NCBI GenBank assembly: GCA_016215315.1
Contig: JACRKG010000054.1
Location: 1-64,000 of the forward strand
DNA: 64,000 nucleotides
Source: Candidatus Woesearchaeota archaeon
Lineage (GTDB): Archaea; Nanobdellota; Nanobdellia; Woesearchaeales; ARS49
Direction of reading: 5' to 3'
Shown here piece after piece: positions 11,010 through 45,500 of the stretch; within the stretch, counting starts at the first letter, position 1; the number at the start of each line of letters is the position of its first letter. A model generated the notes under the pieces. The model searched no databases. It saw nothing but the letters and a program-made list of their open reading frames with translations, and was not told where the DNA came from. The translations under genes were made by a program, and so were the position numbers.

Positions 11010-11038
11010 TTTTTTATCCTTATTAGTCCTTCTCCTTT

Positions 11039-13473: not shown

Positions 13474-13477
13474 TTCA

Positions 13478-21855: not shown

Positions 21856-21857
21856 AA

Positions 21858-21935: not shown

Positions 21936-22024
21936 TTTTGAGTCATTATCGGTAGTTGAATAACAAAAAATCCTTCTAAGTACATAAATATTTATAAACA
22001 AAAACACCTTAAATCAAATAAAAA

Positions 22025-26346: not shown

Positions 26347-26788
26347 TTCTTAGGTATTACGATACCAGGATGTTTATAAACACTTAGGTATTCTGATACC
26401 GAAACATTTAAAGACTAATATCGTTTAAATCATAACAATTTTGTCATTTTGTTGATACTAAAGTAGTATACTTTACTATCAACTATTCAAATTTTTCTAT
26501 TCAAAGAAAACGAAATTACTCCTTTAGAGATAAAATATCAAGAAAAAATATCCTGCAATTCCAATACACCAATTATTGGCGTTGCTGAATTAGTTTGCAC
26601 GTAAAAGACTTATCAGTATCATCTCTAGCTTGGCTGGACAAATTGTTCGGCTGCCAAAAAAGAACAAAAATAAGCAAGCAAATAAGTCTGGCAGCCGCTA
26701 GGGGAAAATTTTCCTTGAAAACGATAAAATAGGTGAAAATAATTCTTAAAAACGCTTAACCTTCTTTTCGACGGTGCAGAACAGCAAT

Positions 26789-26797
26789 ATTTATAAA
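26789..26797 (+). promoter_or_regulatory. candidate TATA box for the giant-gene operon
   Basis: ATTTATAAA lies about 130 nt upstream of the 26919/26931 start. The hairpin repeat element at 26848-26910 would then lie in the 5'UTR. Confidence 0.3.
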
Positions 26798-26847
26798 CAA
26801 AAACTCCTAAAAACAGTTATAAAAGGGTGTTTAAGGGATTTAACGGG

Positions 26848-26918: not shown

Positions 26919-29900
26919 GTGTATGATGTAGTGAACAAAAGAGTGATAGCATTGTTCGTAATAGTATTATTTCTAAACATCACATTAGTTTCAGCACTAC
27001 CAGTTTGGCTTGAATGGATGCTAAAACTACCGAGCATAACTGGAAAACAAGTATTTCAGCAACAAACTTGTCCTTCTGGTTATTCTCCAGTTAAAGATAA
27101 CAACCAATTGATTTATGCGGCAAACTGCCAAACAACTGACTCAGGAATAATGGGCAATTTATACTTAGGAAATAATCCTCAGTTGTATACTCCCGAAGGA
27201 TTTGTACTGGCAGGACTAGTAGATTTTGCATGCACCCCTGAAATAACAGAAAGAACTGAAACAATTTGCGGTCCATTTGTAGGAAATTCAGAAATGGGAG
27301 AACCATTGTCTTTAGTATGTCAAAAATCAATTTCTTGTGAAACAACACAACAACCACCAACGACTCCACCAGTAGAAACCCCACCAACAACAGATCAACC
27401 GATACAACCCTGTTCAGGAGTAGAATGTCCTGCAGGAAAAATACTTAACACAGGAACTTGCTCTTGTGAATGTGCTTTGACAAATGCAATATGTAAACAA
27501 AACTTAAACAATAATGATGCATATGCAGATCTAACAGCTTGCTCTTGCAAAATAAATGAAACACCTCCCCAAACATCAGAAAATTTATGCCCTTCGGGAG
27601 GAACTGTTGAAGCACTTGCAGATACTTGCGAAAAATATGGAAGTTGCCCAACACCACAAATAGCTTGCGGAGTAAAATTTACGGGTTATGGATCATCAAC
27701 AGCATTTGAATGGGGACCTCAATGTTTAGATAAAACAAAAATAACTTATTATTGCGGAGCAACAAACAACGAAGGAAAAACAGCAATCTGCCAATTAGAA
27801 AACGCATGTGGAAACAACGAAATTTGCATTCAACAACCACAAGAAAATCCAACAAATGTTTATTGTAGTGCTCCAGAAAGTGCTTGTCCTCTAGAACCAG
27901 GAGCAGAAGAACCTTGTCAAGAAAAAAACAAAGCAATAAGTATTCAATTTCCGCCAGGTTCTGAAGTCTTAGACAAACCTTACTGTGATAACTTATGCCA
28001 ATTATCTTATTGTTATCAAACGAGCGATAAAAAAATTACAATAGCAAAATCTCCTGGAAAAGAGGAACAGTCAAGAGAAAATGGTAAAGCATATGATGAT
28101 TCTGGCAAAGAAACAGGAACAGATACAGAAACTTGTTATACTTGTTCATTCTATTCATCGGGAGACTTCCAACCAATTGCTTGCCCAATATCTGAAGTAG
28201 CTTGCAATAATAACAATGTAGCGCAATTAGGAGAAGAATGTGACGGAACAGACTTAAAACAAAAAAATTGCAAAGACTTTACTCAAAGCACAATACTGCA
28301 ACCTTTCGACGGAGGAAAACTAAAATGTGACACCGCTTGCGATTACAACACAAATGAATGCTATGTTTGCGGCGATGGATCAATTGACGGACCAGAACAA
28401 TGTGACATCAATGAAGCGGGACAAGAATTTGGTTGCGATCCAGGATGGTTCTGCGGAGTACAATCAGGGTTAAGATGTCAATGCATTCCTCCAATTATTG
28501 AATCAACAAAAGAATCCTGTCAAAAAGCAGGAGTATCCACGACATTAATCAAAAAAGATCCACCACTAGCTTACACATATACTGATGGAATCAAACCATC
28601 ACTTGAAGAAGCATTCAATCAAGCACTACTAGAAACAACAGGCACACTAAAATCAGAAGGAATAGAACTAACAAATCCATCAACAGACTTTGAAAATATT
28701 TGTTTTAAATGCAACATAGAAGGAGAAGCACAAACGGGTGACGATGTAAGTAGAAAAGTATTCGCTGATTATTGTGCACCAGTAGAAAAAGTAAACCTAA
28801 AAACAGCATGCATCCAAGAAGCAAACGGAGTAACATTCCAACAAAAACAAAACGAAGATGTAAAAGAAGAAACAAAATATCCAAACAAAGCAAGACCAGA
28901 AATAACAAAGAAAGAAGGAAGAAAATTAAGCTCGCCAAAAAAATTCAGCAATCAAGAATTCTCTCAATCACTCAATATTCCAACTTCAGAAGTTTCTAGT
29001 GTAGACTTAAACAATGTCTGTTGGGCTTGCGGAATACCAGACACAAGTTACAGTTTACTGGGAGGAAAATTTTCAACGTCAGGTCAACAAGGAGTAACTT
29101 CACAAGCATCATTAGTTCCTGTGAGAATTGATTGTCCAATAATAGAAAAAGCTGAAACGAATTGCTGTATTAGAAAAGATGATGAAGGAAAAATTGTAGA
29201 ACGTGCTTTAGTTGAGGGTAAATGTCCAGAAAAATTACCAATAAAAGATCCAACTGGAGAAGCTTGCAAAATTATTGAAAAAGGAAAACAAGTTTGTTGT
29301 CTAGTTCCTCCTGTTCCTGAAAAGAATATTCCAGAAAATTATGTTTGGAAAGAAAACTCGTGTGGAGAACTAAAAGAATTCCCAGAACAATATTGTAATC
29401 CAATTAAAAGATTAGCTTGTGAGATATGTCCTTCTTGTGATAATGCAATAGGAGGTTTACCTCAAGGAACTCCATCACAAAGCTTGCTTTTAGCAGATCC
29501 TAAAGGAATCATTGGAGAAGGTGATGAAGAACAAAAACAACCCAAATGCGGTGACGGAGTAAGAAATGGAAAAGAAGATTTTGATCCAGGAATGGCAGTT
29601 GTTAATGCAAGAAAAGAATCAGAAAACGGAGCAAGAACTCAAACAATTTGTCCAGTACAAGAAGGATCAACAGGTTCTCTAGTAACAAACCAATGGGATG
29701 ATCACTGCAAAAAAATAGGTTTAGGAACACAATTCAACATTAACACGTGCAAATGCGAAGGCACAACAGAGCTATCAACATCACAATCACAACAACAAAT
29801 TAAAACAAATTGTGAAGTTTACAAACCATCAACAGAAAAAACAGAATTACCACAACTAGAATTACTAAAAAAAGAATATATTAGTTTTGCTCCAGAAAAA

Positions 29901-32900
29901 CAAATAGAACAAATCCCGAGCATACAAAGCACGATATTAATACAAAAAGACTATGTGCTAAGCAGTGATGGCCGCTTCAAAAAAGAAAAAACTCTCGAAC
30001 AAATAGAAGAAACATCCAAAAATATAAAACCAATAACAGGAAAGTTCATAATAACTGGATTCCAAACAGCAGAAATAACAACACCTAAATTAATCAAAAC
30101 AATAGACAACGTTGACGGAAGCAAAACTTTAGAATTCAGCGATGGATCAAAAAAAGTTCTGACAGAAACTTATTCCAAAAACGACCTAGGACAATTAGTT
30201 AGAGATCACTTTACAAAAACAGTAATAACAAAAGAAGGCAAAACAATACAAAGAAAACAATTAATTAACGGCGAAATAGAAGAAACATATCCGGACAAAA
30301 CAGTAATAAGGTACAAATTAACTCCAGATAAAAAATCACAAGTAACATTCCAACAATTTACTAATGATAAAGGAAAAACAGTAAAGTTAAGCTATGAATA
30401 CCTTCCTGACAGCACAAGAAAAAGAATAAGCGACACTGATAGCAGTTCTGCAATCCAAGAACCATTCATTAACGAAAAAGGAGAACAGGAATGGAGAAAC
30501 AAAAAAGAAACCGATGCATTTGGCAGAACATTCTCTTACGACTACAAAAAAACCAAAATCAATGGAGAAGAAAAAGAAGTAACCTTAGTAAAAAATGAAG
30601 CAGGACTAATAGTAGAAGCATTTTATGATGAACAAGTTCAAAGAATTAATGTTGACTGCGAAGAAAAAGAAAAATTAAATTGCAAAAAACCAGAAGAAAG
30701 CAATTACGAAAAAACAGATTTGGGCGGCGGATTATTACAATTCAAGAAAAAAATTCAAGAAGGAGAAAAACAACACGAATACACATGCAAACTAACCAGC
30801 ACAAAAATATTCTCACAACCAGAATGCTTAATGACTTATGAAAAAACACAATTAGATGACGGAACAATAAAAGAAAGCATATACGAATACCAAGGCGACA
30901 GCACTTACAAAATAATAGACAAAAAAGATCCAAGAGACGTCTCAGTCATAAAATACGTTGATGGAAAGCCAAAAACATTAATGGCAACATCAATAGATGA
31001 AGAAGGAAACGCAGTAGGTTACTATGTGAAAGAGCAACAAGATGGTTCTCAAGAACTAGATTTCTTTGACGGAAGAACAAGAAAATTAAGCAAAACAAGA
31101 GAAACAACTTCATTCACAAATGAATTTGGCGATGAAACATTCTTATTAGGAAAAAATAAAGAAGGAAAAGAACAATTCAAACAAGTAAGTAGTGATGGAA
31201 AAACAACAATCTATTATGAAGAAGACAGTCAAGATGCTGAAGGAAAAACAAAATATTTCACATCAAGAACAGAAATAAAAACAGAAAAAGGAACAGAAGT
31301 AATAAGCAGAGAAAAAACAAAAGACGGCCTAATTAAAGAAACACGAGCGGATTCGACTGGCGCTGTAACAATTTTATTCTTCAAAGAAGGAGAATCAGAT
31401 CCTAAAAAATATCAAACAATAGACGAATGCGGAATAGACTCAGGAATAATAGAAACAACAAAAGATCAAGAAAAACCAGAAACAATGACGCAACCTTGTG
31501 AAACTGAAGAAGTGCAATCTCAAGTTGATTTCACAAAACTAAGTGATACAGAAAAAGACAATTATTGCAAAGATAGGAAATCAAAAGATCAACAAAAAAA
31601 TGAAGAATCAAAAAAGGCAAAAGAGCTAAAAGATATATGTGTTTACGAGCTAAAAAATAACAATTACCGAATAAATGAAATAGATAAAAAAGATGGAAGC
31701 AAAGAAAAATATGAATACTTCAATTATGAAAGTAATGAATTAACAAAAATAGAATACACTGGCGGGCCAAGAGATGGAACTTATTTAATTCTGGCAAACG
31801 CAGAAGATGTCAAAAACGAAAAAGGAGAAACAGTCAATGACAAATATGGATCACCAAAAAAATTACAAGTAGTGCTAGAGTCAAAATCACTGATTGATGG
31901 ACAACCAAAAATATATTGCACAGCAAACTTAGCGGACGGAAGCAAACTACAAGTAGAAAAAGGTAAAGGAATCATAAGCCAATACTCTTACTTAAACCCA
32001 GAAACAGAAAAAACACTCAAAAATCTAGGACTAATAGAAGAAACAATAATAGAAGAAACACTAATAGAAAAAACACTAATAGAAGAAACACCCAAAAAAG
32101 GTCCAGCATCATTCACAACAAAAACTCAAGTAATAACACAAGAAAAAACAACTACTACAACAAGAGAACCACTAACTAACGGAAATATTTTAGTGAGAGC
32201 AGTTGATGACGATTTAAGAAACTCGAATTTTGCTCATCTACTTTACGAAAAATACTTCAACAAAGAATGTGTAGGTACTGAAGTAATAAAAGAAGAGCAA
32301 AAATCAGAAGAAACAGAGCAACCAAAAATAAGTCTGAGCGCAGGAAGAAATCAAGCATCACAAAGCTCACAAAAAATAGCGCAAACACTATTAGGCGGAG
32401 GAAAACCAACAGGCCCAGTTAATCTAGGAGATGTATTAGGAACACAAAATCCAGTTTCTTGCGTAGCAAACACACTCAAAAGTTTAAGCGAAGATAAAAC
32501 AGAAACTCCAGAACCAAAATTCTTATACCAAATAATCAAGCCACAAAAAGAAGAAGACTTAGTATTAAGACAAGCATTTGAAGTAAATGGAGAAGAACAA
32601 ATCACTGATTATGTTTACCCAGAACAAAAAAAGAAAACTAGCTACACGAGAGTAAATGTTAAAGAAAAAACGTGGACTCAATTTAATGAAAAAGATGAAG
32701 CTCAAGAATTCTTATCAAAAACAGAACAAGGATACCAATTAACATCTTACGGAGATTACGGCGGACTAACTAAATTATGCGAGAAATTGGACGAAAAACA
32801 ATACCAAAATCCTCTAGCAGAAAAAGTAGACATGACACCAATACAATTATGTAAAGAACAACCAGAACTTTGCTTAGCAGGAAGTTGTCCAGAAACATAC

Positions 32901-35900
32901 GAATCAGTATGCGGTAAAGATGGAATAACCTACAAAAATGAATGCTTAGCAAAAATAGCAAAAGCAGATATTGAAAGAAAAGGAGAATGTCAATGTCAAG
33001 ACTTAAAAAAATTAAAACCAGGAACAGAAGTAGTATGCGAAGACCAAAAGCCAAGAACAACATGTACAACAGATCAAGACTGTAATTCAGAAGGAACAAA
33101 AACATGCGGTAACGGAAAAGAATACTATGAAAAAACATGCAAAGAAGACAAAGAAGGAAATAAATTCTGCATTCCAAATCCAAACTTAGCAACAATCTGC
33201 ACCAACGCAGAATGTCCTCCAGTCCAAACAAGCAATAATTGTCCAACAGGAACGCTATCAAAAGAAATACGTTACGAAAATGGCTGTTTCGCAGGAACAC
33301 AATGCATAAGCCCAGGACAACCACCAATAATTCCAGACTCCAAACAATGTCCTCAAGTAGCAATACCAACACCAATAACGGGATACAGAATAATTCCAAA
33401 ATTTGACAATCAAGGCTGCCTAGTAAACGCAGACATGATTGGAGAAGAACAAATAACAGGAATGGCATCTGAAGAATTAGCAGAACTACAAAACATAAAA
33501 TTACCAACAAAAGAAACAGACAAAGAAAAAACTGCAGAAGCATCATTAGAAAAGCCAAGTGAAGAACTTAATGGAGTGAAAGACAGAGAAATAGGAGATG
33601 GTTGCAACCAAATAAGTATTTGTGACAATGGCGAAATATATCATCCATACTTGAAAAAAGAAAATAGTTGCATTCAAAACCCATTAACAATATGCAATTC
33701 ACCGATTGCAACATACAAAACAAACTTAGTCAAATCTTGCAATGACAAAGATAAAGACGGAAGATGTGATATCAACAATGACAACAAAGAAGATGCAATC
33801 ATAATCAGAAGAAGCAATGATGTTATAGAAACAGTGGAAATAAATTTTGGAAGCAAAGATAACGACTTTGATAATGACGGAATACCCGACTGGTTAGACA
33901 TAGACAAATACGGTACTGGAAAAGCATTCACTAAACCAACATATTCTTTAGACTCACCTCCAGAAGACAGAGATAATGACAAAAATAAAGATGTAGTAGA
34001 ACTTTTATTGGCAAGCCAATTATTCGAAGCAGGACAAGGATACAATTTTGAACAAGACAAAAACAACGACTTAATAACCGACAAAGAAGAAAATTCATTC
34101 AGCTCAATAAAAAACACACTAACAAGTTTTGCAGAACTAATACCCGGATACCTAATAATAAAAGCACCATTTACATTATCAACAAACTTAAAATTCACTC
34201 CAACAAGCATAACTGGAAGAATAATAAATGGAATAACAGGATTCTTTGTTGCACCACCAAATAACGGAGGAACAGGCAAACTCGCTCAATCACAACTAAT
34301 AGGCGGAGTGTGGATGGCAAACATAGAACATGCACCTCAACCATATGATTACATAATGAATGTTTATGACAACTTCAACAAAGTAAAACAACCAAACTTT
34401 GAAGCATTCAAAAAATACCAAAAAGAATACGTAGACAACATAATAGGAAATTTGAACGTAGACTTAGTTTGTGACAAAGATGGCTACAAATCATTCTTGG
34501 AAACACAAAAAAATAGCATAGTTGAACAAGTAATGGCTTCAGTAGAAGCAGTAAAAAAATCATTTGAAGACGCAGAAAAATTCTTAGACAGCGACTTAGA
34601 CATAGCATACGACAAACTAGCAGGAATCAATCCCGTTGAAGACTTAAAAAACAAACTAGAAAACTTCCAAGAAAATTATGAAAAAGCAAAACAAGAATTT
34701 GAACAAACAGGCGAAGCATACACAGGATCAAAAAATAATTTTAAAGAAATAAAAAACAAAATTAGCGATAAATTACAAGAATCAAACGAAGGAAGAAAGT
34801 TTATACATGCAATGGAACAATCAGAACTGAACGAAGTAGACACAGAAAAAACATTCACTAGTGAACAAACAGCACTAAGATTAGCACAAAATAATTATAA
34901 CCAAATAAGTCAATCAGTGGCAGCATGCAATCAAGCAAGAAAAGAGGGGCAAGGAAGTTCTTCCTGCGAAGCATTAGTCAACAAATTAAATCAAGCCACT
35001 ACTAGCTTGAACGCTGCAGAAAGACAATTAAGCGCATCACAAAAACGCGCACAAGGAGCATACCAACCACAAAGCCAAGAAAACTTACAAGCAGCATTCG
35101 ACAAACTACCTCAAAAGATCAAAGACCAATTCGGAAATACTTTTGCTAATTTTATGAGTGCAAGCACTCAAAACTTAAAAGCCACAATAGACTACATAAA
35201 CACCCAAAACTTTGGAAACTTCTGGTTTGGAAGCACAAAATTCAAACCAGAATTTGTAAGCTCAGCAGATCTACTTTCAAAAGGAACTCTAGAACAAGTT
35301 GCAACAACTAACCGAGATAGAATAGTTGAAAAAAACATAAAGGCAGAACTAATAAACCAAAGATTAGATGACACGCCAGAAAATAGAGCATCATTAAGAA
35401 AAATTGTAGAAAACAGTGAATGGTATGAAGAGATAACTAATGAAGTTGAAAACGCAAAACAAATACAACAAAAAGTTCAGAAAGGAGAAAAATTAACAAA
35501 AGAAGAACAAGACTTCGTTCAAAAAACAGCAAAAGAAGAAAACACAAGAACAAAAGAAGAAATCAACAAGAAAAAACAAGAAGTATTCGAAAAAAGAAAA
35601 GAAGAATTCTCTAAAGCACAAGAAAAATTAGACAAAATACAAAAATTTGATTTCCAAAAAGAAACCAACAACTTATACCAAGAAATAACTTCAGACTATC
35701 CAAGAAAAGTAAGCGATTTGATTGAAGGATTAGAAGATATCAGAACAAGAGCTCAAGAAATAATAAACAACAAAGAAAGTTGCCCTGCAGAAAATAAAGA
35801 CGCAATGAACCAACTACTAGCTCTTCTAGATTCAATGATTGACAGTATGGAGCGCAAAAAATCGGACTTATACGAATTCATAGACAAACACATTGAAGGA

Positions 35901-38900
35901 AAAGACAAAAATGCACCAACAGATCCAGCAGAAAGAGAAAAATTATTCCCTGCTGAAGCACTAAACGCACAAAACGAAAAACTCAAACAATACCAAGACA
36001 ACGCAAACAATCCTCAAGCAACAAACTTCCAAAAAGAACAATGGAATAATTTAGCACAACAAGAAAAACAATCATTTGCTTCAATATATTTCAAACTAGC
36101 CGCTGACAGAATGATCATAGATGCAATCTTTGAACAAATACAAATGCTCCAAGTAGAACCATTAACAAAACTAGCACAAATGCTAGAACAAAAAATGGAA
36201 TGCTGCACACAAAGTTACCAACCAATGAAAGGAACAACACTACCTAAACAAGAAAAAATAATAGAAAAACCCAAAGACAAAGAATTACCAAAAGCACCAG
36301 ACACAACAGGAGCATTAGCACTAACACTAGAATCAATACAATGCCAAACAAACTTAGTAACAGGAATGCAAACTACATCAACCACAAAAAGAACTCAAGA
36401 TGATACTGAAAACCCTCCACCAGAACTACCAACACCAATAGAATGCCCATACTGCACGTGCAATAATTACATTCAGAAAGCAGCATTCAAAAAAGGACAA
36501 GCAACACAAACAAGCTTCGGACCAACACTTGACGAACCTCAAACACCAAAAGAACCACCATTAGATCCTGGCAGCGTATCTAATGGGGCATCATCAAGAC
36601 CAACTGAACCACCAACGTTACAAAACATAGCTGCAATACTAAAACCAGGAACAACAGTAGCACAACCAACAACAGAAAGACCGGCATCAATACCACCTCC
36701 AACATCAATAACTCCAAAACCACAAGAAATAGTTAAACCAATAATCAATCCATGTGTAGACAAGTTCAAATTAAAAGAAGCATCACTTGAAGGAGTTCAA
36801 AAATTTGAAGATCAAAAATTAAAAAAAGCCGCAAAAGAACAAAACACTTGCTGGAAAGAATTCGGCGATGATTACAAAGGCGAAGGCATACAAAAATGGA
36901 AAGAAAACGCAGTCCAAGCAATAAATGAAAAACTAAAGAGCAAAGGATTAAGCATAGATAAACTAGGATCAGATGCAGAAAGTACTGGTGGAATCAAAAT
37001 TTATTACGGAGGAAGTGAAGTCACACCAGACGAACAAGGAAACATACCAGGAACATTCTACAACAGTGAAGAAATACAAAAACTAAGAGAAGAACAAATA
37101 CAAGAAAGAATGCAGTCACAAACAGAAAAAATAAGAGACTGCCACGTAAAAACAGAAGCAGCAGCGCAAGTAGCAAAAGATGTTGTAGGCCAAGATTACA
37201 ATGCACAAGCAGTAGAGAAAAAAGACGGAACATTCCAAGTACAAATAACATCAAGAGATGGAACAAACGGGTTCTTAGACGAAAACGGCAACGCAATATT
37301 CCAAACACCTGAAGGATCAGCAGTAAAAATAGGAGATAAATACGTTCCATTAAACAAAGCACAAGATGGAAAAATGTACACTCTTGACGAAAATGGAAAC
37401 TTACAAGCATACAATGTTGATGAAAAACTTGGTGATGAAGAAAAACAAAAACTAAGCGGATGCTTCAATCTCAACGCAATAGGCCTAAACTATCAAGCAG
37501 ACTTTAATGACTTACTTGCTAAAGGAAAAATAGACGAAGCAATAAAAGCAAAAATCAACCAAGGAATGATGAATGCAAGACTTAATGCATTACTAGGAGA
37601 CATAACTGCAGGAATCAATTCATTAATGGATTCACTCAAAGCAATAGCACAAGTACTAAAAGATCAAGGACTAATAAATGAAGAATTATTTGATATGATT
37701 AATAAATTAAGTGCGGATAATTTAGACAACCTAAAAACAGCTTTAGAACAATTAGGCGACAAAATAGAAGACAAAACAATATTTGAAGAATTCAAAAAAA
37801 CATTCGACTCACTACTAGCATCAAAAACACTACAAGAAGCAAACCAATTACTAGAAAAACAAAAAGGAATGAAACCATGCACAGAACAAAAAACACCAGA
37901 CTGCGCAACAAAAGAAGAATACCAAAAAATAGCTGAAGACCTAAAAAAATTAGTAGAAGAAGACAAATTCTTCAACAAAGAAGAAGCAATGCCTGAAAAC
38001 TACAAAAAATTCTTACAAGGACTTCTTGTTCAATCAATATTCGGAAGCGAAGGAGTTCCAGGCTTAATCGATGCGATGAGAACGGAAATTATTGAAGGAA
38101 TAAAAAATACCTCTCCACTAACTGAACTTGGAAAATCGTTATACACCAATTTAGAGCTAGAAAAAGCATACCAAGAAATATTAAACAAATACGGAAATTA
38201 TTTGAGCGATGAAGCAAAAGATGGCTTAACTAAATCAAGAGATTATTACGCAAGCGAAGCAGAATATGCAGGAATAAGACTTGAAAGACAATCAGAATAC
38301 ACATCACTAAAAGAAGAAAAAGACCTATCTCTAGGAGAAAGACAATTCTCAAACATAAACGAACAAAGAAGAACTGAATTATTAACAAAAGGCGAACAAA
38401 TAACTTCAAGAGTTGAAGCCAACTTCGCAAGACAAAAAGCATACTCTGACTTGAAAACAGTTCTAAGTGAATGGGTTAGAGGAATGGAAAGAAAAGGAAG
38501 CTTCATGGATTACAGTTTAAAATTAGGAGAAATAAGAAAAGCAATAGAAACTTATGGCGGATCAAGCAAAGAAAAATTATTATCAACACTTGACCAAGTT
38601 AACTCAAAACTAGCATCAGGAAGTGAAGCAGAACTAACCACAGGAATTCTAGACATAATGAACTCCTTAACAGAAACAAATAATTTACCATCCAACAGAA
38701 TTACTGACGAAGAAATACAATCCTTAGGAGTAATAAATAAATTAACAGCTTCAGGAAAAGATGTTCATTTAGCAGACCAAAAAGGAAACATACTAAGCAA
38801 TGACTTAGAAGGAAGCCACCAAAGCATACAATCAAGAGAAAAAGTTCAAGAACAATCACAATTATACAAAATTTTGGTTGCAGGAAAATACCAACAAGCA

Positions 38901-41900
38901 GCCGAACAAGGAGATTGGGAAGGACTAACTAAATGGCATAATGAATTATCTGACGCAAATTACTTCCAAGAAATGAATAATAAACAATTAACAATATTAC
39001 AATTAGAACAAAAAATGCACAATACACAATCAGCAGGAAAACCAGGATGGGGAGAATGGTTATTCACATCAGGAGATAAGCTAAGAGAAAAATATTCAGA
39101 TTATTATAATCCAACACCAAGAGAAGAAACAATAAAAGGTTTAGGTAATGAAATAGAAAAACAAACAATACTAAGAGATGTAACTTATGAAATGAGAAAC
39201 ATGGATGATGAGCACAGAAAAGATCATTTAGATTATCTTGGAAAAAGAACTGAAGAAATATTAAAAGAACAAGGAGAAATAAAAACAAAAGCACAAGAAG
39301 CAAGAGGCGGATTTTTCTGGGGACTTATATCTAGCGCAGGTTCTGCTGTAGGCTTAACAACAGCTCCAAGCGTTCTAGAAGATCAAGCAAAAAATGCTGC
39401 TCTCGAAACAAGCCTAATGGAAGGAAGGCTAGAAGCAGTAGGTTCACTAATGAAAAATTATAATCCTCAAGGATATAATGAATTCAAACGAGAACTAGAA
39501 ATAAAAGCATTAAGCGCTCCAAAAAGTGCAGGATTCATGAAAGAATTCAGTCCTGAAAGAGCAAAAGTATACTCAGAATTAGGAGAAACTTACTTGAAAA
39601 CATTAACAAACTTAGAAACACAAGAAGCAGGAAACAAAGCAATAAATGAAGCTGTTTCAATAGCAGCAAAACAAGGAAAAACATTAACACAACAAGAACT
39701 AGATCAAGCATACTATGGTGGAGCAAGCAAAGCACTCAGTGATATTGGCCAAAAAATAAGAATGAACTCCGCAGAAATGTACAGTTCAACAAAAAGCTAC
39801 AACATTAAAGATGAAATAGAAAAGAATACTGCATCCACACTACAATTTTTAGGATCATATGCATCACAATACACAACAGAATTAAGAAAACTAAGCAATG
39901 AAGGGCTAACAACAAATGATGACTTACTAAAAATACAAAATAATATATTATCAACGATGAGTTCACTAGGAGGAATAAGCGAAATAAACAGAAAAGCATT
40001 CTTAGACTTAAACACGATGCAAGTATTAGGAACAAAAGTTCCAAGACTAGGACTAATGTCACCAGGAGGACTAGTAAGATACTGGAAAGAAGGAGTCTCT
40101 GGACTAGACAATATTGGCCAAACAGAAGTATACAATTTAGGAAACGTACAAGATGCACTATTAAGAGCAACAGCAGGAACAGCAGATAAATCAAACATAA
40201 ACATTCTCAAGAATGCAGGAATAAATTATGAAAAAGGAAAAATATTCCTAACACAAGATTCTCTAAATAAATTCAACAACAATGTAGTGCAATCCAAAGG
40301 AATAAACGATTTCAACTCATACGACATGAACCGCGTAAGCCAAATGTTTGGATTTGTAGAAATGATAAAAACAGCAGCATCATTCGCAGTAGGAGGAGTT
40401 GCAACTAAATTCGTTAACGAAGCAGTTACAGGAATAAAAACAGCCAACACAGCAAGATACTTCACAACAGCAGAAAAACTAAACAGGTACGTAAAATATG
40501 GAGAAGGATTAGAAGACTTAACACAATTACAAAGAATAGGACTAAAAGTTTCAAACGAAGCAATAAAAATAGGAGGGTTTGCAGGAGAAGCAACAGCATT
40601 CCCAATCGGAATGGCCGCAGGAAGCGACGCAGTAGGATATGTAGCAACAAGATTTGAAGATAAACTGGGGGGAACACCAGAAGGAAGAAGCTACACTCCA
40701 GCAATGGACGCATTCATGAAAAATCCGGGCGAAGCAATACTAAACTCTGCAGCAATGCTAGGAACATTCAAAGGTTTAGGAAAATTAGGAGTTGCAGCAC
40801 AAGAATATGCACAATCAAAAATAGTAAGAAATGCACTAGAAACAGAATTAGGATCACAAACAGCAAAACAATTACTTCCAGGAGTAATGAACAGATTAAG
40901 AACTGGAGAAGCAATACCGGAATTCTTGAAAGGAGCAGAAAACGTAGGAACAGCACTAACAATGACAAAAGCAATACCAATAGCATTTGAAATAGCAGGA
41001 ATGGTAGGACTAGAATCACTAGAAAACAATTACGCAGGAAACAGCGTTCCATTCTATGAAACACTACTAAGAGCAGGATTCACAACAACAATGATGCACG
41101 GAGCAGCACACATACCATCAAAAGATGCAAATCAAGGAATAAAAGCAAGCAATTTCGTAAGAGACGTAAGCTCAGCAAGAACAGTACGAGATCAAGCATA
41201 CGATTCATTACAAAAACTTGCAGGAGTAGAACCATCAGCAAGAAAACCATTTGAAGCAACTGCAGGAAGAGAATACATAGACCCATTAAAACAATACAAA
41301 CCAGAAGAATTAGACAACTTACAAGCAGACCAATTAAGACAATACCAAGAAGGAATGAACGAAGTAATAAAATATGAACAATTAGCAAACCAAGCAAGCA
41401 CTCCTGCAGAAAAAGAAGCAATGAGAACAGCCGCAGAAAATGCAAGAACACAAGCAACAGATATGATGGGAAGAGCAGAAGCAACAAGGAAATTAGCAGA
41501 AACAATGAGAGAAACACAACAAGAAGGAAAACTAAAAACACCACAACCAGTGCCTGAAGCAAAACAACCAACATCACAAGAAGCGCAAAAATTATTGAAA
41601 GACATTATCACGCCAGATATGAGAAAAGAACTACTACAAAGAATACAACAAGAACAATTAATCCAAGACGTAATAAACAATCCTGCAAGAGTAACAGAAC
41701 AAAGAATACTAGAAGAAGGATTAGCAAGAACCCCACAAGAAGCACAAAAATTATTGAAGGACTTAATTAAACAAGGTAAAAAAGCAAGACTAACAAACAA
41801 CGAATATGAATTAGCAAGAGCAGATAACAATTTAGGAAATGAAAGATACAAATTAGAAGTTGAGGCACAAAAATTACAAGAAAAATACAAAAACGGAGAA

Positions 41901-42563
41901 TTAACAACAAGCGATTATTCTAGATTATTAGACTTACAAAGAAATTATCATTTAGCAGAAGAACAATTCTACAAACAAGCATCAAGAGATAAAACAGGAA
42001 CAGAAAAAGCTCATTTGGATATTAAAGCAAATGAAGCAGCACAAAGAGCTTCAGACACAAAAATAGACATAGAAGCACTACAAAGAACAAGCCAAGCAAT
42101 AGGAATACCTCAAATAAAAGACGATAAAAAAGATGCACTATCATTAGAAGCAATAAAAGCAATAAAGAATTCACTGGACTTTTTAGACTTACAAATACTA
42201 AACAAAGGAAGAATTGTCAGCATGGATGTTTCCGCACTAAAAGAAATGAGCGACGCAACAAAAGAAAAAATAAGCTCTGGAGAACAAAAACTGTTAGCAG
42301 AAAATGGATTCAAATCACTAGCAGAAAAAGCAAGCGCATTAAGAAAAGAAGCAGAAGAAATGAGGACAAAAGCAACTAGTGAAAATGGTAAAATTATTGA
42401 TTTAGCACTATCAAGAAGTGCAATGGAATTAGACCAAAGAGCCAGTCAATTAGAACAAATGGCAAGAAATGAAAGAAGCACAGAAAGTCTAGAACAAGAA
42501 AGAACCCAATTAGAACAAGAAAGAGCAAGATTACAAAAAGAGATGGAAGCATGCGTAGGATAA
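26919..42563 (+). CDS. giant secreted protein (5214 aa): Cys-rich N-terminal region, Kazal domain, TSP3-like Ca-binding motifs, ~2800-aa helical/coiled-coil C-terminal region
   Basis: Single uninterrupted ORF starting at GTG 26919 (or GTG 26931) with a signal peptide. Myxo-type Cys repeats (CGDGSIDGPEQCD). Kazal signature CPETYESVCGKDGITYKNECLAKIAKADIERKGEC at about 32885-32992. D-x-D-x-DG clusters at about 33735-33910. Long E/K/Q-rich helical region with Gly/Ala-rich amphipathic stretches at about 39300-41100. Confidence 0.8.
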   Translation: MYDVVNKRVIALFVIVLFLNITLVSALPVWLEWMLKLPSITGKQVFQQQTCPSGYSPVKDNNQLIYAANCQTTDSGIMGNLYLGNNPQLYTPEGFVLAGLVDFACTPEITERTETICGPFVGNSEMGEPLSLVCQKSISCETTQQPPTTPPVETPPTTDQPIQPCSGVECPAGKILNTGTCSCECALTNAICKQNLNNNDAYADLTACSCKINETPPQTSENLCPSGGTVEALADTCEKYGSCPTPQIACGVKFTGYGSSTAFEWGPQCLDKTKITYYCGATNNEGKTAICQLENACGNNEICIQQPQENPTNVYCSAPESACPLEPGAEEPCQEKNKAISIQFPPGSEVLDKPYCDNLCQLSYCYQTSDKKITIAKSPGKEEQSRENGKAYDDSGKETGTDTETCYTCSFYSSGDFQPIACPISEVACNNNNVAQLGEECDGTDLKQKNCKDFTQSTILQPFDGGKLKCDTACDYNTNECYVCGDGSIDGPEQCDINEAGQEFGCDPGWFCGVQSGLRCQCIPPIIESTKESCQKAGVSTTLIKKDPPLAYTYTDGIKPSLEEAFNQALLETTGTLKSEGIELTNPSTDFENICFKCNIEGEAQTGDDVSRKVFADYCAPVEKVNLKTACIQEANGVTFQQKQNEDVKEETKYPNKARPEITKKEGRKLSSPKKFSNQEFSQSLNIPTSEVSSVDLNNVCWACGIPDTSYSLLGGKFSTSGQQGVTSQASLVPVRIDCPIIEKAETNCCIRKDDEGKIVERALVEGKCPEKLPIKDPTGEACKIIEKGKQVCCLVPPVPEKNIPENYVWKENSCGELKEFPEQYCNPIKRLACEICPSCDNAIGGLPQGTPSQSLLLADPKGIIGEGDEEQKQPKCGDGVRNGKEDFDPGMAVVNARKESENGARTQTICPVQEGSTGSLVTNQWDDHCKKIGLGTQFNINTCKCEGTTELSTSQSQQQIKTNCEVYKPSTEKTELPQLELLKKEYISFAPEKQIEQIPSIQSTILIQKDYVLSSDGRFKKEKTLEQIEETSKNIKPITGKFIITGFQTAEITTPKLIKTIDNVDGSKTLEFSDGSKKVLTETYSKNDLGQLVRDHFTKTVITKEGKTIQRKQLINGEIEETYPDKTVIRYKLTPDKKSQVTFQQFTNDKGKTVKLSYEYLPDSTRKRISDTDSSSAIQEPFINEKGEQEWRNKKETDAFGRTFSYDYKKTKINGEEKEVTLVKNEAGLIVEAFYDEQVQRINVDCEEKEKLNCKKPEESNYEKTDLGGGLLQFKKKIQEGEKQHEYTCKLTSTKIFSQPECLMTYEKTQLDDGTIKESIYEYQGDSTYKIIDKKDPRDVSVIKYVDGKPKTLMATSIDEEGNAVGYYVKEQQDGSQELDFFDGRTRKLSKTRETTSFTNEFGDETFLLGKNKEGKEQFKQVSSDGKTTIYYEEDSQDAEGKTKYFTSRTEIKTEKGTEVISREKTKDGLIKETRADSTGAVTILFFKEGESDPKKYQTIDECGIDSGIIETTKDQEKPETMTQPCETEEVQSQVDFTKLSDTEKDNYCKDRKSKDQQKNEESKKAKELKDICVYELKNNNYRINEIDKKDGSKEKYEYFNYESNELTKIEYTGGPRDGTYLILANAEDVKNEKGETVNDKYGSPKKLQVVLESKSLIDGQPKIYCTANLADGSKLQVEKGKGIISQYSYLNPETEKTLKNLGLIEETIIEETLIEKTLIEETPKKGPASFTTKTQVITQEKTTTTTREPLTNGNILVRAVDDDLRNSNFAHLLYEKYFNKECVGTEVIKEEQKSEETEQPKISLSAGRNQASQSSQKIAQTLLGGGKPTGPVNLGDVLGTQNPVSCVANTLKSLSEDKTETPEPKFLYQIIKPQKEEDLVLRQAFEVNGEEQITDYVYPEQKKKTSYTRVNVKEKTWTQFNEKDEAQEFLSKTEQGYQLTSYGDYGGLTKLCEKLDEKQYQNPLAEKVDMTPIQLCKEQPELCLAGSCPETYESVCGKDGITYKNECLAKIAKADIERKGECQCQDLKKLKPGTEVVCEDQKPRTTCTTDQDCNSEGTKTCGNGKEYYEKTCKEDKEGNKFCIPNPNLATICTNAECPPVQTSNNCPTGTLSKEIRYENGCFAGTQCISPGQPPIIPDSKQCPQVAIPTPITGYRIIPKFDNQGCLVNADMIGEEQITGMASEELAELQNIKLPTKETDKEKTAEASLEKPSEELNGVKDREIGDGCNQISICDNGEIYHPYLKKENSCIQNPLTICNSPIATYKTNLVKSCNDKDKDGRCDINNDNKEDAIIIRRSNDVIETVEINFGSKDNDFDNDGIPDWLDIDKYGTGKAFTKPTYSLDSPPEDRDNDKNKDVVELLLASQLFEAGQGYNFEQDKNNDLITDKEENSFSSIKNTLTSFAELIPGYLIIKAPFTLSTNLKFTPTSITGRIINGITGFFVAPPNNGGTGKLAQSQLIGGVWMANIEHAPQPYDYIMNVYDNFNKVKQPNFEAFKKYQKEYVDNIIGNLNVDLVCDKDGYKSFLETQKNSIVEQVMASVEAVKKSFEDAEKFLDSDLDIAYDKLAGINPVEDLKNKLENFQENYEKAKQEFEQTGEAYTGSKNNFKEIKNKISDKLQESNEGRKFIHAMEQSELNEVDTEKTFTSEQTALRLAQNNYNQISQSVAACNQARKEGQGSSSCEALVNKLNQATTSLNAAERQLSASQKRAQGAYQPQSQENLQAAFDKLPQKIKDQFGNTFANFMSASTQNLKATIDYINTQNFGNFWFGSTKFKPEFVSSADLLSKGTLEQVATTNRDRIVEKNIKAELINQRLDDTPENRASLRKIVENSEWYEEITNEVENAKQIQQKVQKGEKLTKEEQDFVQKTAKEENTRTKEEINKKKQEVFEKRKEEFSKAQEKLDKIQKFDFQKETNNLYQEITSDYPRKVSDLIEGLEDIRTRAQEIINNKESCPAENKDAMNQLLALLDSMIDSMERKKSDLYEFIDKHIEGKDKNAPTDPAEREKLFPAEALNAQNEKLKQYQDNANNPQATNFQKEQWNNLAQQEKQSFASIYFKLAADRMIIDAIFEQIQMLQVEPLTKLAQMLEQKMECCTQSYQPMKGTTLPKQEKIIEKPKDKELPKAPDTTGALALTLESIQCQTNLVTGMQTTSTTKRTQDDTENPPPELPTPIECPYCTCNNYIQKAAFKKGQATQTSFGPTLDEPQTPKEPPLDPGSVSNGASSRPTEPPTLQNIAAILKPGTTVAQPTTERPASIPPPTSITPKPQEIVKPIINPCVDKFKLKEASLEGVQKFEDQKLKKAAKEQNTCWKEFGDDYKGEGIQKWKENAVQAINEKLKSKGLSIDKLGSDAESTGGIKIYYGGSEVTPDEQGNIPGTFYNSEEIQKLREEQIQERMQSQTEKIRDCHVKTEAAAQVAKDVVGQDYNAQAVEKKDGTFQVQITSRDGTNGFLDENGNAIFQTPEGSAVKIGDKYVPLNKAQDGKMYTLDENGNLQAYNVDEKLGDEEKQKLSGCFNLNAIGLNYQADFNDLLAKGKIDEAIKAKINQGMMNARLNALLGDITAGINSLMDSLKAIAQVLKDQGLINEELFDMINKLSADNLDNLKTALEQLGDKIEDKTIFEEFKKTFDSLLASKTLQEANQLLEKQKGMKPCTEQKTPDCATKEEYQKIAEDLKKLVEEDKFFNKEEAMPENYKKFLQGLLVQSIFGSEGVPGLIDAMRTEIIEGIKNTSPLTELGKSLYTNLELEKAYQEILNKYGNYLSDEAKDGLTKSRDYYASEAEYAGIRLERQSEYTSLKEEKDLSLGERQFSNINEQRRTELLTKGEQITSRVEANFARQKAYSDLKTVLSEWVRGMERKGSFMDYSLKLGEIRKAIETYGGSSKEKLLSTLDQVNSKLASGSEAELTTGILDIMNSLTETNNLPSNRITDEEIQSLGVINKLTASGKDVHLADQKGNILSNDLEGSHQSIQSREKVQEQSQLYKILVAGKYQQAAEQGDWEGLTKWHNELSDANYFQEMNNKQLTILQLEQKMHNTQSAGKPGWGEWLFTSGDKLREKYSDYYNPTPREETIKGLGNEIEKQTILRDVTYEMRNMDDEHRKDHLDYLGKRTEEILKEQGEIKTKAQEARGGFFWGLISSAGSAVGLTTAPSVLEDQAKNAALETSLMEGRLEAVGSLMKNYNPQGYNEFKRELEIKALSAPKSAGFMKEFSPERAKVYSELGETYLKTLTNLETQEAGNKAINEAVSIAAKQGKTLTQQELDQAYYGGASKALSDIGQKIRMNSAEMYSSTKSYNIKDEIEKNTASTLQFLGSYASQYTTELRKLSNEGLTTNDDLLKIQNNILSTMSSLGGISEINRKAFLDLNTMQVLGTKVPRLGLMSPGGLVRYWKEGVSGLDNIGQTEVYNLGNVQDALLRATAGTADKSNINILKNAGINYEKGKIFLTQDSLNKFNNNVVQSKGINDFNSYDMNRVSQMFGFVEMIKTAASFAVGGVATKFVNEAVTGIKTANTARYFTTAEKLNRYVKYGEGLEDLTQLQRIGLKVSNEAIKIGGFAGEATAFPIGMAAGSDAVGYVATRFEDKLGGTPEGRSYTPAMDAFMKNPGEAILNSAAMLGTFKGLGKLGVAAQEYAQSKIVRNALETELGSQTAKQLLPGVMNRLRTGEAIPEFLKGAENVGTALTMTKAIPIAFEIAGMVGLESLENNYAGNSVPFYETLLRAGFTTTMMHGAAHIPSKDANQGIKASNFVRDVSSARTVRDQAYDSLQKLAGVEPSARKPFEATAGREYIDPLKQYKPEELDNLQADQLRQYQEGMNEVIKYEQLANQASTPAEKEAMRTAAENARTQATDMMGRAEATRKLAETMRETQQEGKLKTPQPVPEAKQPTSQEAQKLLKDIITPDMRKELLQRIQQEQLIQDVINNPARVTEQRILEEGLARTPQEAQKLLKDLIKQGKKARLTNNEYELARADNNLGNERYKLEVEAQKLQEKYKNGELTTSDYSRLLDLQRNYHLAEEQFYKQASRDKTGTEKAHLDIKANEAAQRASDTKIDIEALQRTSQAIGIPQIKDDKKDALSLEAIKAIKNSLDFLDLQILNKGRIVSMDVSALKEMSDATKEKISSGEQKLLAENGFKSLAEKASALRKEAEEMRTKATSENGKIIDLALSRSAMELDQRASQLEQMARNERSTESLEQERTQLEQERARLQKEMEACVG

Positions 42564-45500
42564 ACGAACTAAAAAAAGTAGTAATACTATTTTTTGTACT
42601 TTTAATTAGTTTACAAATCATTGCAGCACAAGCATGCTATCCACAACAAGAACTACAAAAAGTCAACGAAAGAATAGAAGAAATAAAAACAGCACTAGAA
42701 GCATCACGAAATGCAGAAAATGCAAGAACAGCAGAACACGAAGCATACAGAAAAACAGAAAAATCATTTGAAGACGCACTAAATTTAGTACAAGACAAAT
42801 ATGATGCAGGAGAAATAACACCAGAACAGTATTCTGCACTGAAAAAAGTCTACGAAAACGAAGTAGCAAAACTAAGAAAAGCAAGACAATTAAGTATTTT
42901 ACAACTAGAAAATGTAGGCTCAGGAGCTAAAATAAGTCAAGAAGTACAAAAATTAGAAACAAACAGAAGAAAACAATTAAGCCAAGTAGAAAGAAAACTT
43001 TCAGATCTTGAATACCAATTAAGAAGCGGAGGAAAAAGCGAATCTGAAGTAAGCGGAACATTAGCAACTGAAAGACAAAAATTACTACAAGAATTATCAG
43101 ACCAGCTAGGAACATCAAGAGAACAACTAAACAAAGAATACAATCTTAACGAAATCCAAAAACTAGAAAGAGAAATAAACCAATTAGAAATAGCAAATAA
43201 CGAAATAAAATCAGATACCCGATTCAAACAATTCTTTGAAAGCATAGAAAGCGTAAAAGAAACTTATAGAGTCAATCAAAATTCAGAAGCAAGAATGCAA
43301 GCAAGAGAAGACTTAGCAAAAAAATTAAGACAAGACCCAGAATTATCAAACAAAATTGATGGAGCAGAAGTAAAATATCGAGACATAAGACAAAAAGCAA
43401 AAGAACTAGTTGCTGATATGAACGACAAAGCGGCAATAAAACAAAAAATAAAAGAACTAGCTAAAAAAACAGCAGAAACTCCTTCCGACGTACAATCATG
43501 GAAAGACTTATCACTACTAAAAAAACACTTACAAAATTTAGAATTAGGAAACTACAACAAACTATCGAGCTTAAGAACAGAATTAGGAGCAGCACAAGAA
43601 AGACTAACAAAACTACCTCAAGATTCTGCAGAATACAAAGCAGTAGAAACAGAATACAACAGGATTCTAGACGAAATAAGCGATATATCAAATGAATCCT
43701 ACTTAGAAACAGGAGACAAAACATTAAACGATTTGTTAGAATTAGTGATGAGACAATGGGAATACGCCAAAACATCAGAACAAAACCAATACACATTCAA
43801 CATTAGAGGAAAACAATTAAGTGAAGCATTATTAGAATTCGCCAGAAATTTGAAGCCTGGTAAGGCTTCAGCAATAGAATTCGCACTAGGTGGAGGAAAA
43901 ACAAGCACAGTAGCTCCAGTAATCGCAGAAATATCAAGACTACTAACAGGAAGAAAAGCATTAATAGAATTACCAGATGGAAAAAGCACAGATGCATACA
44001 ATGAAATAGGAAGGGCGCTAACAAGACAAGGAAGAAGAGTTGTAGTAATAAGAAACACAGAAAAACCACTAGAAATTTTAGCGCAAATAAAAGATGCAGA
44101 CGTAGTTCTCGTAGAATTCAGCACTAGAGGATTCATAGAAGCAATGGCCAGGTCAACAAAAATAAGCCCGACACTACGAGAAGCTTACAGAGAACTACAA
44201 TTAGAACTAGTAAAAGACAGAACACATATACAAGACGAAGCACACCAAGGAACAGACATAGGAAACAGATACACATTAAGCGGTGGAGAAGGAGAAGAAA
44301 TAGGCAAACCATTACAAAACGATGCAAAACTAATAGGAGACACACTAGTAGAATTGGGATTCGTTAAAAAAGGATTCGTGGACAGAAGTGTATTATCGAC
44401 AACAGCAGTCTTTAAAGGAATATTCATGCAAGCAAGAGGAGCACTATTTGAAGAAACAGCACTAAAAAAAATATCAGAAAAACTAGCAGAAAAACTAAAA
44501 CAAGAAGGTTTCAGCCAAGAAAACTTAGGAGAAAAAATAAATGACTACTTCAAAAACAAAGAAAAAAGCAAATACTCAAATGAATTCTCAACAGAACAAC
44601 AAACAAGAATGAAAGATTTACTAGAACAAATCAACAATTTCGCAGAAGCAATGAACAAAAAACCAAACAGTGAGTATCAACCAGATAAATTAGGAAGAAA
44701 AATAGGCCTAGCAAAAAACGGAAACCCTGCATTCAATCAACAAGTAAGCAATCCAAAACTAGCACTAGCAGTTGAGTATGTTGGAAGTACATACTTTGAC
44801 AAACCAACAAATTTCGGATCAGTAAAAACAAGCGGAGGAACAATATCCTCATCCTGGCTAGCAAACCAATATTTATTATTAAAAAATAGCGGAACATACT
44901 TAGGAATGTCAGGAACAATGGGAAAACAATTACAATCCCTCGTTAGCGCACTAAAAATAGAAACGAAATCAAACTCACAAATGAACGACTTAATCTTTGG
45001 AAGACAAAATGCACAAGGAGAATACGAAGGAGGACTATTAAGAGAAGCAACAGGAACAAAAACACTAAATGAAGCACTAGATATTTCAATAAAAGAAATT
45101 CAAAAAGGAAAAGAAGGAATGTTCGGCAAGAGCAAAGGACAAGATGCAAATGGAAATTTAGTAATGGTAGTACCTCACGAAGGAACAACAGCTGGAGAAA
45201 TAATAAGCAAACTAATAAAATCAGGAATCAAAAAAACATTCATAGAAAAAAACGGAGAAAACTTCATTCTAAAAGATAGTAATGGAAACAAATTAAGAGA
45301 TATAAATTCAAAAGAAGCAGCCACATTAATGAATAATGGAAAAGATATAATTCTAGTAATGGGAGAAGCAGCAACAACAGGAACAGACGTAAAACTAAAC
45401 AAAAACATACCATTTGTTAACTTCGCAAGCTCAACAAACATAGCAGACACAATAATGCAAGGAGTAAAAAGAGCGGGAAGACTAGCAGGAACAAACGCAG

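Follow-up and report, generated by a model that had tools for sequence, protein, structure and literature searches.

The giant gene and its setting

The window analysed here is a stretch of 64,000 nt (G+C about 33%) at the start of contig JACRKG010000054.1, which belongs to a Candidatus Woesearchaeota archaeon (assembly GCA_016215315.1). The gene with which we are concerned, here called the giant, is an uninterrupted open reading frame (ORF) on the + strand that runs from a GTG at 26919 to a stop at 42563 and comprises 5,214 codons. Its product appears to be an exported, modular protein, and the near-complete loss of N-glycosylation sites along the entire chain suggests that all of it lies outside the cytoplasm. 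In the NCBI version the gene starts at an in-frame GTG at 26931, four codons later, giving a product of 5,210 aa (MBI5066506.1) that is annotated as 'hypothetical protein HZA97_09840, Candidatus Woesearchaeota archaeon' on a 142.5-kb contig and is the sole member of its 90% cluster. The codon-position composition of the ORF is strongly coding-like, with A making up 0.61 of third positions and G 0.32 of first positions, the antisense ORFs within the gene had no Pfam matches and would encode Leu/Phe/Ser-rich mirror products, and the giant ORF is a genuine gene. Since stop and start codons overlap at the next two junctions (by 13 nt and 10 nt), the giant, g3184 and g1267 form one operon in which the giant comes first. 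The coordinates of its features are collected in Table 1.

The archaeal markers found in the window are an eRF1/Pelota-family protein, TrmB, and the alpha and beta subunits of a phenylalanyl-tRNA synthetase (PheRS) of the archaeal type. Among 185,579 species genomes the nearest PheRS-beta proteins were those of Nanoarchaeota, Woesearchaeota and Pacearchaeota, with an identity of only 37-43%, and thus the lineage is poorly sampled.

The giant is without detectable relatives. In an exhaustive HMMER search the C-terminal 1,200 aa were compared with 1.84 billion cluster representatives and only the protein itself was recovered, and pattern scans of genomes and metagenomes with the giant and g3184 found no relatives. 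No match to the giant was found in PHROGs, in a tblastn search of 50,697 phage records or, except for the Kazal-like domain described below, among the solved structures of the PDB. At the PheRS-beta loci of relatives (n = 34) there was no adjacent giant ORF and no synteny. Word-indexed searches with aa 4050-4800, 2380-4050 and 1040-1720 also returned nothing, but these negatives are weak, since the search missed the giant's own entry, which HMMER did find; its list of 8,000 candidates was probably saturated by low-complexity words. When the proteins of the surrounding island were compared by BLASTP and phmmer for internal repeats and paralogy, weak matches only were obtained.

Table 1. Positions in the window of the features of the giant and of the genes that follow it in the operon
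Feature	Position (nt)	Strand	Remarks
TATA-box-like ATATTTATAAACA	26787..26799	+	about 120 nt 5' of giant start
Signal peptide or anchor, aa 1-27	26919..26999	+	NKR, hydrophobic core VIALFVIVLFLNITLVSAL, possible cleavage after VSA
Cys-rich N-terminal region, aa 51-965	27069..29813	+	69 Cys; Pro/Thr linker at about aa 140-165
Cys-poor K/E/T/D-rich region, aa 1000-1950	29916..32768	+	many DG/NG-turn, beta-hairpin-like repeats
Kazal-like domain, aa 1978-2026	32850..32996	+	Pfam Kazal_1; PDB matches; Cys motif
Second Cys-rich block, aa 2026-2283	32994..33767	+	
Two DxDxDG motifs, aa 2276 and 2316	33744..33905	+	
First charged helix-prone block, aa 2480-3090	34356..36188	+	holds single-alpha-helix-like (SAH-like) aa 2869-2906
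Cys/Pro/Thr-rich linker, aa 3095-3320	36201..36878	+	breaks the proposed helical tail
Second helix-prone block, aa 3560-4100	37596..39218	+	C-x7-C loop at aa 3654-3662
Gly/Ala-rich, moderately hydrophobic alpha-type block, aa 4100-4760	39216..41198	+	hydropathy, FoldIndex
Charged helix-prone C-terminal tail, aa 4761-5214	41199..42560	+	
g3184, 3,184 aa, signal peptide	42551..52105	+	start overlaps giant stop by 13 nt
g1267, 1,267 aa, signal peptide	52096..55899	+	start overlaps g3184 stop by 10 nt

Export and the loss of sequons

The N-terminal hydrophobic core, with positive charges ahead of it, has a Kyte-Doolittle hydropathy of 2.82 and an additive Hessa dG of -2.8 kcal/mol, and this signal peptide or anchor was the only membrane-competent segment in the giant. 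A second line of evidence for the location of the chain comes from its N-glycosylation sites (sequons), which were counted as N-x-S/T with x not P and compared with the number expected from composition. Of the 3 sequons in the giant (42 expected) one falls within the signal peptide, and the mature chain thus retains 2 where its composition would give 41.3 (Poisson 1e-15). A single sequon instead of 22 is found in the C-terminal half (6e-9) and none instead of 6.1 in the Gly/Ala-rich block, and when the giant was split into eight segments each was found to contain 0 or 1.

The same depletion was seen in the other exported proteins of the window. The upstream giant of 1,362 aa (g1362) has no sequon where 16 were expected, g3184 has 1 (20 expected), g1267 none (7.3 expected), the next giant, which starts from 57387, has 1 (11.7 expected), and the window's small ORFs with a lipobox or signal peptide, when pooled, have none (about 10 expected). 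Altogether the signal-peptide and lipobox ORFs in 9117-14671 (-), 21181-26346 (+) and 26919-63998 (+), a set made up of the five giants and several small ORFs of those ranges, contain about 5 sequons against about 109 expected. Outside those ranges a 258-aa signal-peptide-like ORF (20341-21117) was undepleted, with 2 sequons and 1.9 expected. Ten cytoplasmic proteins of the window, pooled, had 24 sequons against 19.9 expected, and the secreted ORFs at 33 loci of relatives had 155 against 112. The control patterns S/T-x-N, D-x-S/T, Q-x-S/T and N-x-A/G occurred at expectation. By these counts the purge is specific to the sequon, to exported proteins and to this organism. No published description of such a purge was found in the literature searched.

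Since sequons were purged over its whole length, the full chain must have been exposed to the N-glycosylation machinery or to some other sequon-reading agent. It is thus likely that the whole giant is extracytoplasmic, including the C-terminal part that was earlier called a helical tail, which argues against topologies with cytoplasmic loops; staying unglycosylated is probably under selection.

Modules of the giant and its exported neighbours

The giant contains 124 Cys residues in module-like clusters, with 69 in aa 51-965, 27 in aa 1954-2283 and none in aa 3663-5211. An earlier note on this DNA had described a Cys-rich N-terminal part, which agrees with the location there of 69 of the 124 Cys, and had also seen myxo-type repeats (CGDGxxDGPEQCD) in it. 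The repeats did not hold up: one clear copy was found, a single CGDGSIDGPEQCD motif at aa 484-496 (nt 28368-28406), along with a degenerate CGDG at aa 877, and neither TIGR02232 nor a Pfam Cys-repeat was matched in NCBIfam or Pfam by the whole protein or, at E <= 10, by fragments of it.

A motif of the form [PST]-I-T-G-[KR] recurs in the giant (aa 38-43, 1037-1042 and 2429-2434) and also occurs in a 224-aa ORF at 21181-21855 (aa 24-29) and in the 1,362-aa ORF (aa 78-83). It directly follows the N-terminal hydrophobic segment in the giant (aa 38-43) and in the 224-aa ORF, the other copies being internal. Large ORFs of relatives (L010, L029) have similar F/V-T-G motifs after their signal peptides.

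The Cys-poor region that follows gave a sub-threshold match to Tcp10_C (G-box), with 23.1 bits against a cut-off of 36, and carries a 15-nt tandem repeat in four copies (LIEET) at 32030-32091. Beyond it lies the Kazal-like domain. Pfam Kazal_1 (PF00050) scored 24.5 bits over aa 1978-2020 against a gathering score of 21, Kazal_2 (PF07648) remained just under its cut-off (21.8 vs 22.8), and Kazal inhibitors of the PDB, including PSTI, LDTI and others, aligned to the giant with E values of 9e-4 to 3.5e-2, covering the second to the sixth Cys of the fold (C2 to C6). The core motif, C1990-x7-C1998-G-K-D-G-I-T-Y-K-N-E-C2009, is present, the C2-x7-C3 and C3-x10-C4 spacings fit, and C6 is found at C2024. 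The fifth Cys (C4+3/4), however, is missing from the helix (LAKIAK), and an extra Cys is located at 2026, two residues past C6. The Kazal domain proposed at about residue 2000 was thus borne out by the Kazal_1 score, which is above the gathering score, and by the C-x7-C motif, but it is not the canonical one it had been taken for. Cys 2026 and Cys 1978/1985 could act as substitutes for the missing C5. By its hidden Markov model (HMM) score the module is a family member with a variant Cys pattern, and it is predicted to be an inhibitor; alignment to LDTI and PSTI would place Glu1992 at the P1 position.

A single-sequence AlphaFold2 (AF2) model of aa 1950-2130 had a predicted local distance difference test score (pLDDT) of 51 overall and of less than 50 over the Kazal part, and a Foldseek search of the PDB with this model gave no match at E < 1. 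Within the second Cys-rich block, aa 2049-2130 were modelled as small beta-hairpin modules with a pLDDT of about 70-77. Like the known Kazal inhibitors (PF00050; PSTI 1tgs_I, leech LDTI 1an1_I), the giant's module has the core C-x7-C-G-x-D-G-x-T-Y-x-N-x-C; unlike them it is a single copy within a 5,214-aa archaeal protein, lacks C5, has the extra Cys past C6 and has a predicted Glu at P1. In archaea Kazal folds were reported only as rare DPANN singletons (PMC13607799).

The DxDxDG clusters that had been noted after the Kazal domain are indeed present, as two motifs at 2276 and 2316. The second of them, DNDFDNDGIPDWLD, is similar to a thrombospondin type 3 (TSP3) repeat by motif only: despite this motif the TSP3_bac HMM had no match in the giant, whereas the neighbouring 224-aa protein does match TSP3_bac.

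The remainder of the chain had been viewed as a helical tail of about 2,800 aa forming a coiled-coil stalk. QEAQKLLKD does occur twice in it, as had been observed, at aa 4887 and 4940 (nt 41577-41603 and 41736-41762), and around the two copies 37 of 51 nt are the same. As for the stalk, the region is interrupted by Pro/Thr/Cys linkers and by beta-like DG-turn stretches at aa 3330-3520, the longest stretch free of Pro and GG in the C-terminal half is 175 aa, and a crude heptad score flagged 3.5% of residues compared with 2.5% in a shuffle, a signal no better than that of the shuffle. The giant has only one SAH-like E/K stretch (38 aa). When aa 4090-4800 were modelled by AF2 without an alignment the product was helical but had a pLDDT of 40, which does not discriminate between helix and disorder. 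No evidence was found for a protease-resistant stalk.

The giant is part of an island of about 40 kb that encodes five consecutive giant signal-peptide proteins. Classical signal peptides of N-in/C-out orientation were found in the giant, g3184, g1267, the 1,362-aa upstream protein and the downstream protein of more than 2,200 aa. In g3184 a SpoIIE/PP2C domain was identified at aa 1769-1967 (E 2e-9; motifs GGD, DATGHG and SDG), together with the catalytic core of a Ser/Thr protein kinase (E 8e-9; HGDxKPxN and DFG) and an HD motif whose Pfam match was below the cut-off. The catalytic motifs are intact, the protein has only 4 Cys, and the kinase, PP2C and HD domains are catalytically plausible as judged from these motifs. 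As an exported giant of signalling enzymes g3184 is unusual. Near its C terminus a perfect 42-nt tandem repeat (51839-51931, 2.2 copies) encodes HEELLRKAQQSLEQ twice, and this repeat is probably a recent duplication.

The next giant (57387-63998, +) extends past the window end and has a signal peptide and an FHA domain at aa 280-350 (E 7e-15). It also contains three copies of a module of about 90 aa with a D/N-C-[EQ]-G-x-x-S-x-x-C loop, and one further copy is found in g3184 (aa 2574-2665); a leave-one-out profile of this C-x7-C module scored 24.2 bits, whereas 300 shuffles reached 6.0 at most. A copy of the module in the giant was considered and rejected, as the profile detects the giant no better than shuffled controls. 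Upstream, the 1,362-aa signal-peptide protein (22025-26113, +) has 80 Cys (5.9%) and zero sequons, and its sole match was to DUF7107, below threshold. The stop of its gene overlaps the start of a 78-aa ORF with a lipobox (LVGC) at 26110-26346.

The giant, g3184 and g1267 all bear a C-terminal Cys, located two or three residues before the end, and in g3184, g1267 and the next giant a Cys directly follows the signal peptide. We considered an end-to-end disulfide daisy chain in gene order and gave it less weight, as the constraint of overlapping starts accounts for the C-terminal Cys without a function. All three are encoded by a TGC that overlaps an ATG in the same register (xxA TGC), that of the giant being at 42552-42554, and the simplest account is that these Cys are there because the TGC codons overlap start ATGs. 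The junctions at 42549-42556, 52094-52101 and 55888-55907 share this design, with TGC as the penultimate or antepenultimate codon. Two of the overlapping ATGs start the next gene, while the third belongs to a relic five-codon ORF (MQIIS*) at 55890 that is like the g1267 start; this relic suggests a lost downstream gene, or the insertion of the opposite-strand gene at 55900-57042.

On the upstream side, ATATTTATAAACA resembles a TATA box and may belong to the archaeal promoter from which the giant, g3184 and g1267 are transcribed. The 570-nt spacer 5' of the giant has further noteworthy elements at 26349-26415 and 26648-26697. A 33-nt unit occurs in it twice, each time with the palindrome GGTAT-N4-ATACC and, after it, a TATA-like box, and these units may be operator/promoter pairs; a G+C-rich stem of 9 bp, CGGCTGCCA/TGGCAGCCG, is also present in the spacer. 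When 26560-26730 were folded z was -1.9, the 5' leader hairpin had z = -0.6, and an Rfam search of the region upstream of the giant found nothing.

Elsewhere in the window, three tandem paralogous ORFs of about 300 aa (9117-11938, -) have lipobox-like signals (IVAC, FISC and VLSC) and 7 Cys each at conserved positions, with no Pfam match and no sequons. A 120-aa protein at 6929-7291 (+) matches the Janus/Ocnus family PF05005 (29 bits, cut-off 23), which we take to be a mostly eukaryotic phosphohistidine-phosphatase family and which is unusual for an archaeon. A major vault protein (MVP) homologue with Vault repeats and an MVP shoulder/SPFH domain (E 3e-28) is encoded at 3742-5493 (+); archaeal MVP-like proteins, including those of DPANN, have been described (PMC13607799).

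Proposed role in host contact and competing explanations

We propose that the giant is a wholly extracytoplasmic, modular host-contact protein of this DPANN (Woesearchaeota) archaeon, exported and without detectable relatives, and we put the probability of this reading at about 0.5. In an episymbiotic cell its most likely role would be that of a tether at the surface or of a scaffold for contact with the host. The protein would be exported by its N-terminal Sec-type signal peptide, which may be cleaved or may be retained as the sole membrane anchor, so that the entire chain would come to lie outside the cytoplasm. Along the chain about 900 aa of disulfide-type Cys-rich modules would be followed by about 950 aa of beta-hairpin-like charged repeats, the Kazal-like module, small disulfide modules with two Ca-type DxDxDG motifs, and finally about 2,700 aa of helix-prone blocks with Pro/Thr/Cys linkers between them and, inside, a 650-aa Gly/Ala-rich block of globular hydropathy. 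The disulfide and Kazal modules could provide stability and local control of proteases near the cell, while the C-terminal part may project outward and act with the exported enzymes that are encoded alongside it.

If the signal peptide is uncleaved, the Cys-rich and Kazal part would be proximal to the cell and the C-terminal helix-prone part with its 650-aa block distal. A receptor-binding head had previously been placed at the N terminus, but the sole membrane-competent segment is N-terminal and, in an anchored protein, that layout is reversed. What stood of the modular giant originally envisaged were the export, the disulfide-type Cys-rich modules and the Kazal-like domain, whereas the fibre with a head and a stalk was not supported.

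Several observations weigh against a part in host contact. Family scans of the giant did not identify adhesion, lectin or receptor-binding domains, there are no homologues by which conservation could be judged, and both structure predictions were of low confidence (pLDDT 40 and 51). Episymbiosis is assumed from the lineage. The sequon inference was drawn from the window, with any oligosaccharyltransferase gene beyond its scope. Furthermore, the small lipoprotein-like ORFs are depleted too (0 vs about 10 expected), and the depletion is therefore a trait of the organism's exported proteins generally and no signature of a special role of the giant.

Among known systems the closest kind are the SPEARE giants of Nanohaloarchaeota, which were proposed to function in host contact (Hamm et al. 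2019, PMC6642349). Like the giant, these are very long DPANN proteins (about 3,300-8,500 aa) that are mostly extracytoplasmic and modular, have adhesion-type parts that vary, and occupy a considerable fraction of a small genome. SPEARE proteins have a serine protease domain, laminin-G, a BC-toxin-like shell and, at the C-terminal end, a transmembrane segment beyond which a type III restriction-enzyme region lies in the cytoplasm. None of these defining domains was found in the giant by Pfam and NCBIfam scans and there is no C-terminal transmembrane segment; the only hydrophobic anchor of the giant is N-terminal and the whole chain is apparently outside the cell. The giant is thus not one of the SPEARE giants, although it appears to be analogous to them. 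Halomucin (cited in PMC6642349) and other giant prokaryotic surface proteins are likewise exported and repetitive or modular. Proteins of the halomucin type are glycosylated and sugar-binding, whereas the giant is purged of N-glycosylation sites and has no sequence relationship to them. Giant surface proteins are also found in the candidate phyla radiation (CPR) and in Omnitrophota.

It is considerably less probable that the giant serves the cell's own envelope as a matrix, sheath or S-layer-associated scaffold with no direct part in host contact, the Kazal module then protecting the envelope. A highly charged chain that lies wholly outside the cytoplasm, bears disulfide modules and Ca-type motifs and has no recognisable adhesion domain would suit such a function, as would a neighbouring gene with bacterial TSP3 Ca-binding repeats. 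Archaeal envelope proteins, however, are usually rich in N-glycosylation sites. The secreted ORFs of relatives show a sequon excess (155 vs 112 expected), whereas the giant has almost none. Envelope proteins are also normally conserved within a lineage, which is not what is seen in a protein without a detectable relative, and the giant shares its operon with giants of signalling enzymes.

The Gly/Ala-rich block bears on another, rather unlikely possibility, in which the giant is a translocator or fusogen whose N-terminal modules dock while aa 4100-4760 insert post-translationally into the host membrane and open a path for the exported kinase/phosphatase and FHA giants. Both Gly/Ala stretches to which the earlier note drew attention exist, at aa 4129-4150 and 4550-4576, and they had been likened to the membrane-interacting segments of translocators. 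The composition of GGFFWGLISSAGSAVGLTTAP is like that of viral fusion peptides and translocator hairpins. Apart from the signal peptide, the least polar windows of the giant cluster in this block, with 5 of 6 in aa 4131-4730, and a marginal excess of [GA]xxx[GA]xxx[GA] was found (12 vs 5.6 expected, P about 0.02). The partners of the giant also require intracellular ATP and phosphoprotein substrates and yet have signal peptides and are free of sequons, and chains that carry no glycans would pass through a pore more readily.

Measured hydrophobicity speaks against insertion. The Gly/Ala segments gave additive Hessa dG values of +4.5 to +8.6 kcal/mol, no more hydrophobic than shuffles, and the best internal window, GFFWGLISSAGSAVGLTTA, with +4.5 kcal/mol, equals the mean best window of 200 shuffles; no internal window was of translocon-type hydrophobicity, and the numbers of windows below 6, 8 and 10 kcal/mol likewise matched the shuffle expectation. 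GxxxG was not enriched in the block. It was the only long block with a positive FoldIndex, and its hydropathy is that of an ordinary globular protein. Like type III secretion system (T3SS) translocators, alpha-pore-forming toxins and phage tape-measure proteins, the giant has long helix-prone regions and Gly/Ala-rich, moderately hydrophobic segments, but it has no Pfam, PHROGs or PDB match to any pore-former, translocator or tape-measure family, the hydrophobicity of its segments is at chance, and the AF2 model of the region was uninformative. The simplest reading is that about 650 aa, at aa 4100-4760 or thereabouts, form an ordinary globular domain of alpha type; a domain that becomes membrane-active after translation is less likely and drew no support from these measurements.

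Since kinase, phosphatase and FHA domains make functional sense only within a cell, their presence in exported proteins is the chief hint of an action of the island on a host. It is conceivable, though improbable on balance, that the entire 40-kb island is a host-manipulation apparatus, in which the giant would dock, the Gly/Ala domain would breach or fuse the host membrane, and the PP2C/HD/kinase and FHA proteins would pass into the cytoplasm of the host and rewire its phospho-signalling. If so, the island would do for an archaeon what effector delivery does for bacteria, with parts that are sequence orphans, and the sequon purge would keep the exported proteins glycan-free.

The odds are long against a polymorphic-toxin-like protein, in which a long delivery stalk would bear a rapidly evolving toxic domain at its C-terminal end. 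The orphan C-terminal region probably does evolve fast, and the beta-hairpin repeats in the middle of the protein loosely recall YD/RHS repeats, but no RHS/YD HMM matched the giant and no toxin domain was recognisable in it. Moreover, in place of a small immunity-type gene the next gene downstream encodes an exported protein of 3,184 aa, and no paralogous cassettes were found. An annotation or assembly error, or a decaying non-functional ORF, would be compatible with a singleton without homologues but is very unlikely on the sequence evidence, given 15.6 kb free of stop codons in an AT-rich genome, a codon-position bias that agrees with coding, the purge of one specific tripeptide pattern along the entire length, the translational-coupling overlaps with the downstream genes, and a Logan contig that independently assembles part of the neighbouring region.

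Little is known of the ways in which DPANN archaea attach to their hosts and exploit them, and the candidate molecules are few, SPEARE being an example that is also made up of giant exported proteins. To these the locus adds an orphan 5,214-aa protein with a Kazal-like module of a kind rare in archaea, linked in an operon to exported enzyme giants. The exported proteins encoded here have lost about 95% of the expected N-x-S/T sites, unlike the cytoplasmic proteins or the secreted proteins of relatives. If this signature holds genome-wide it would be a cheap reporter of membrane topology, as well as evidence that exported proteins must stay unglycosylated, and would thus provide a testable handle on the biology of the symbiont surface.

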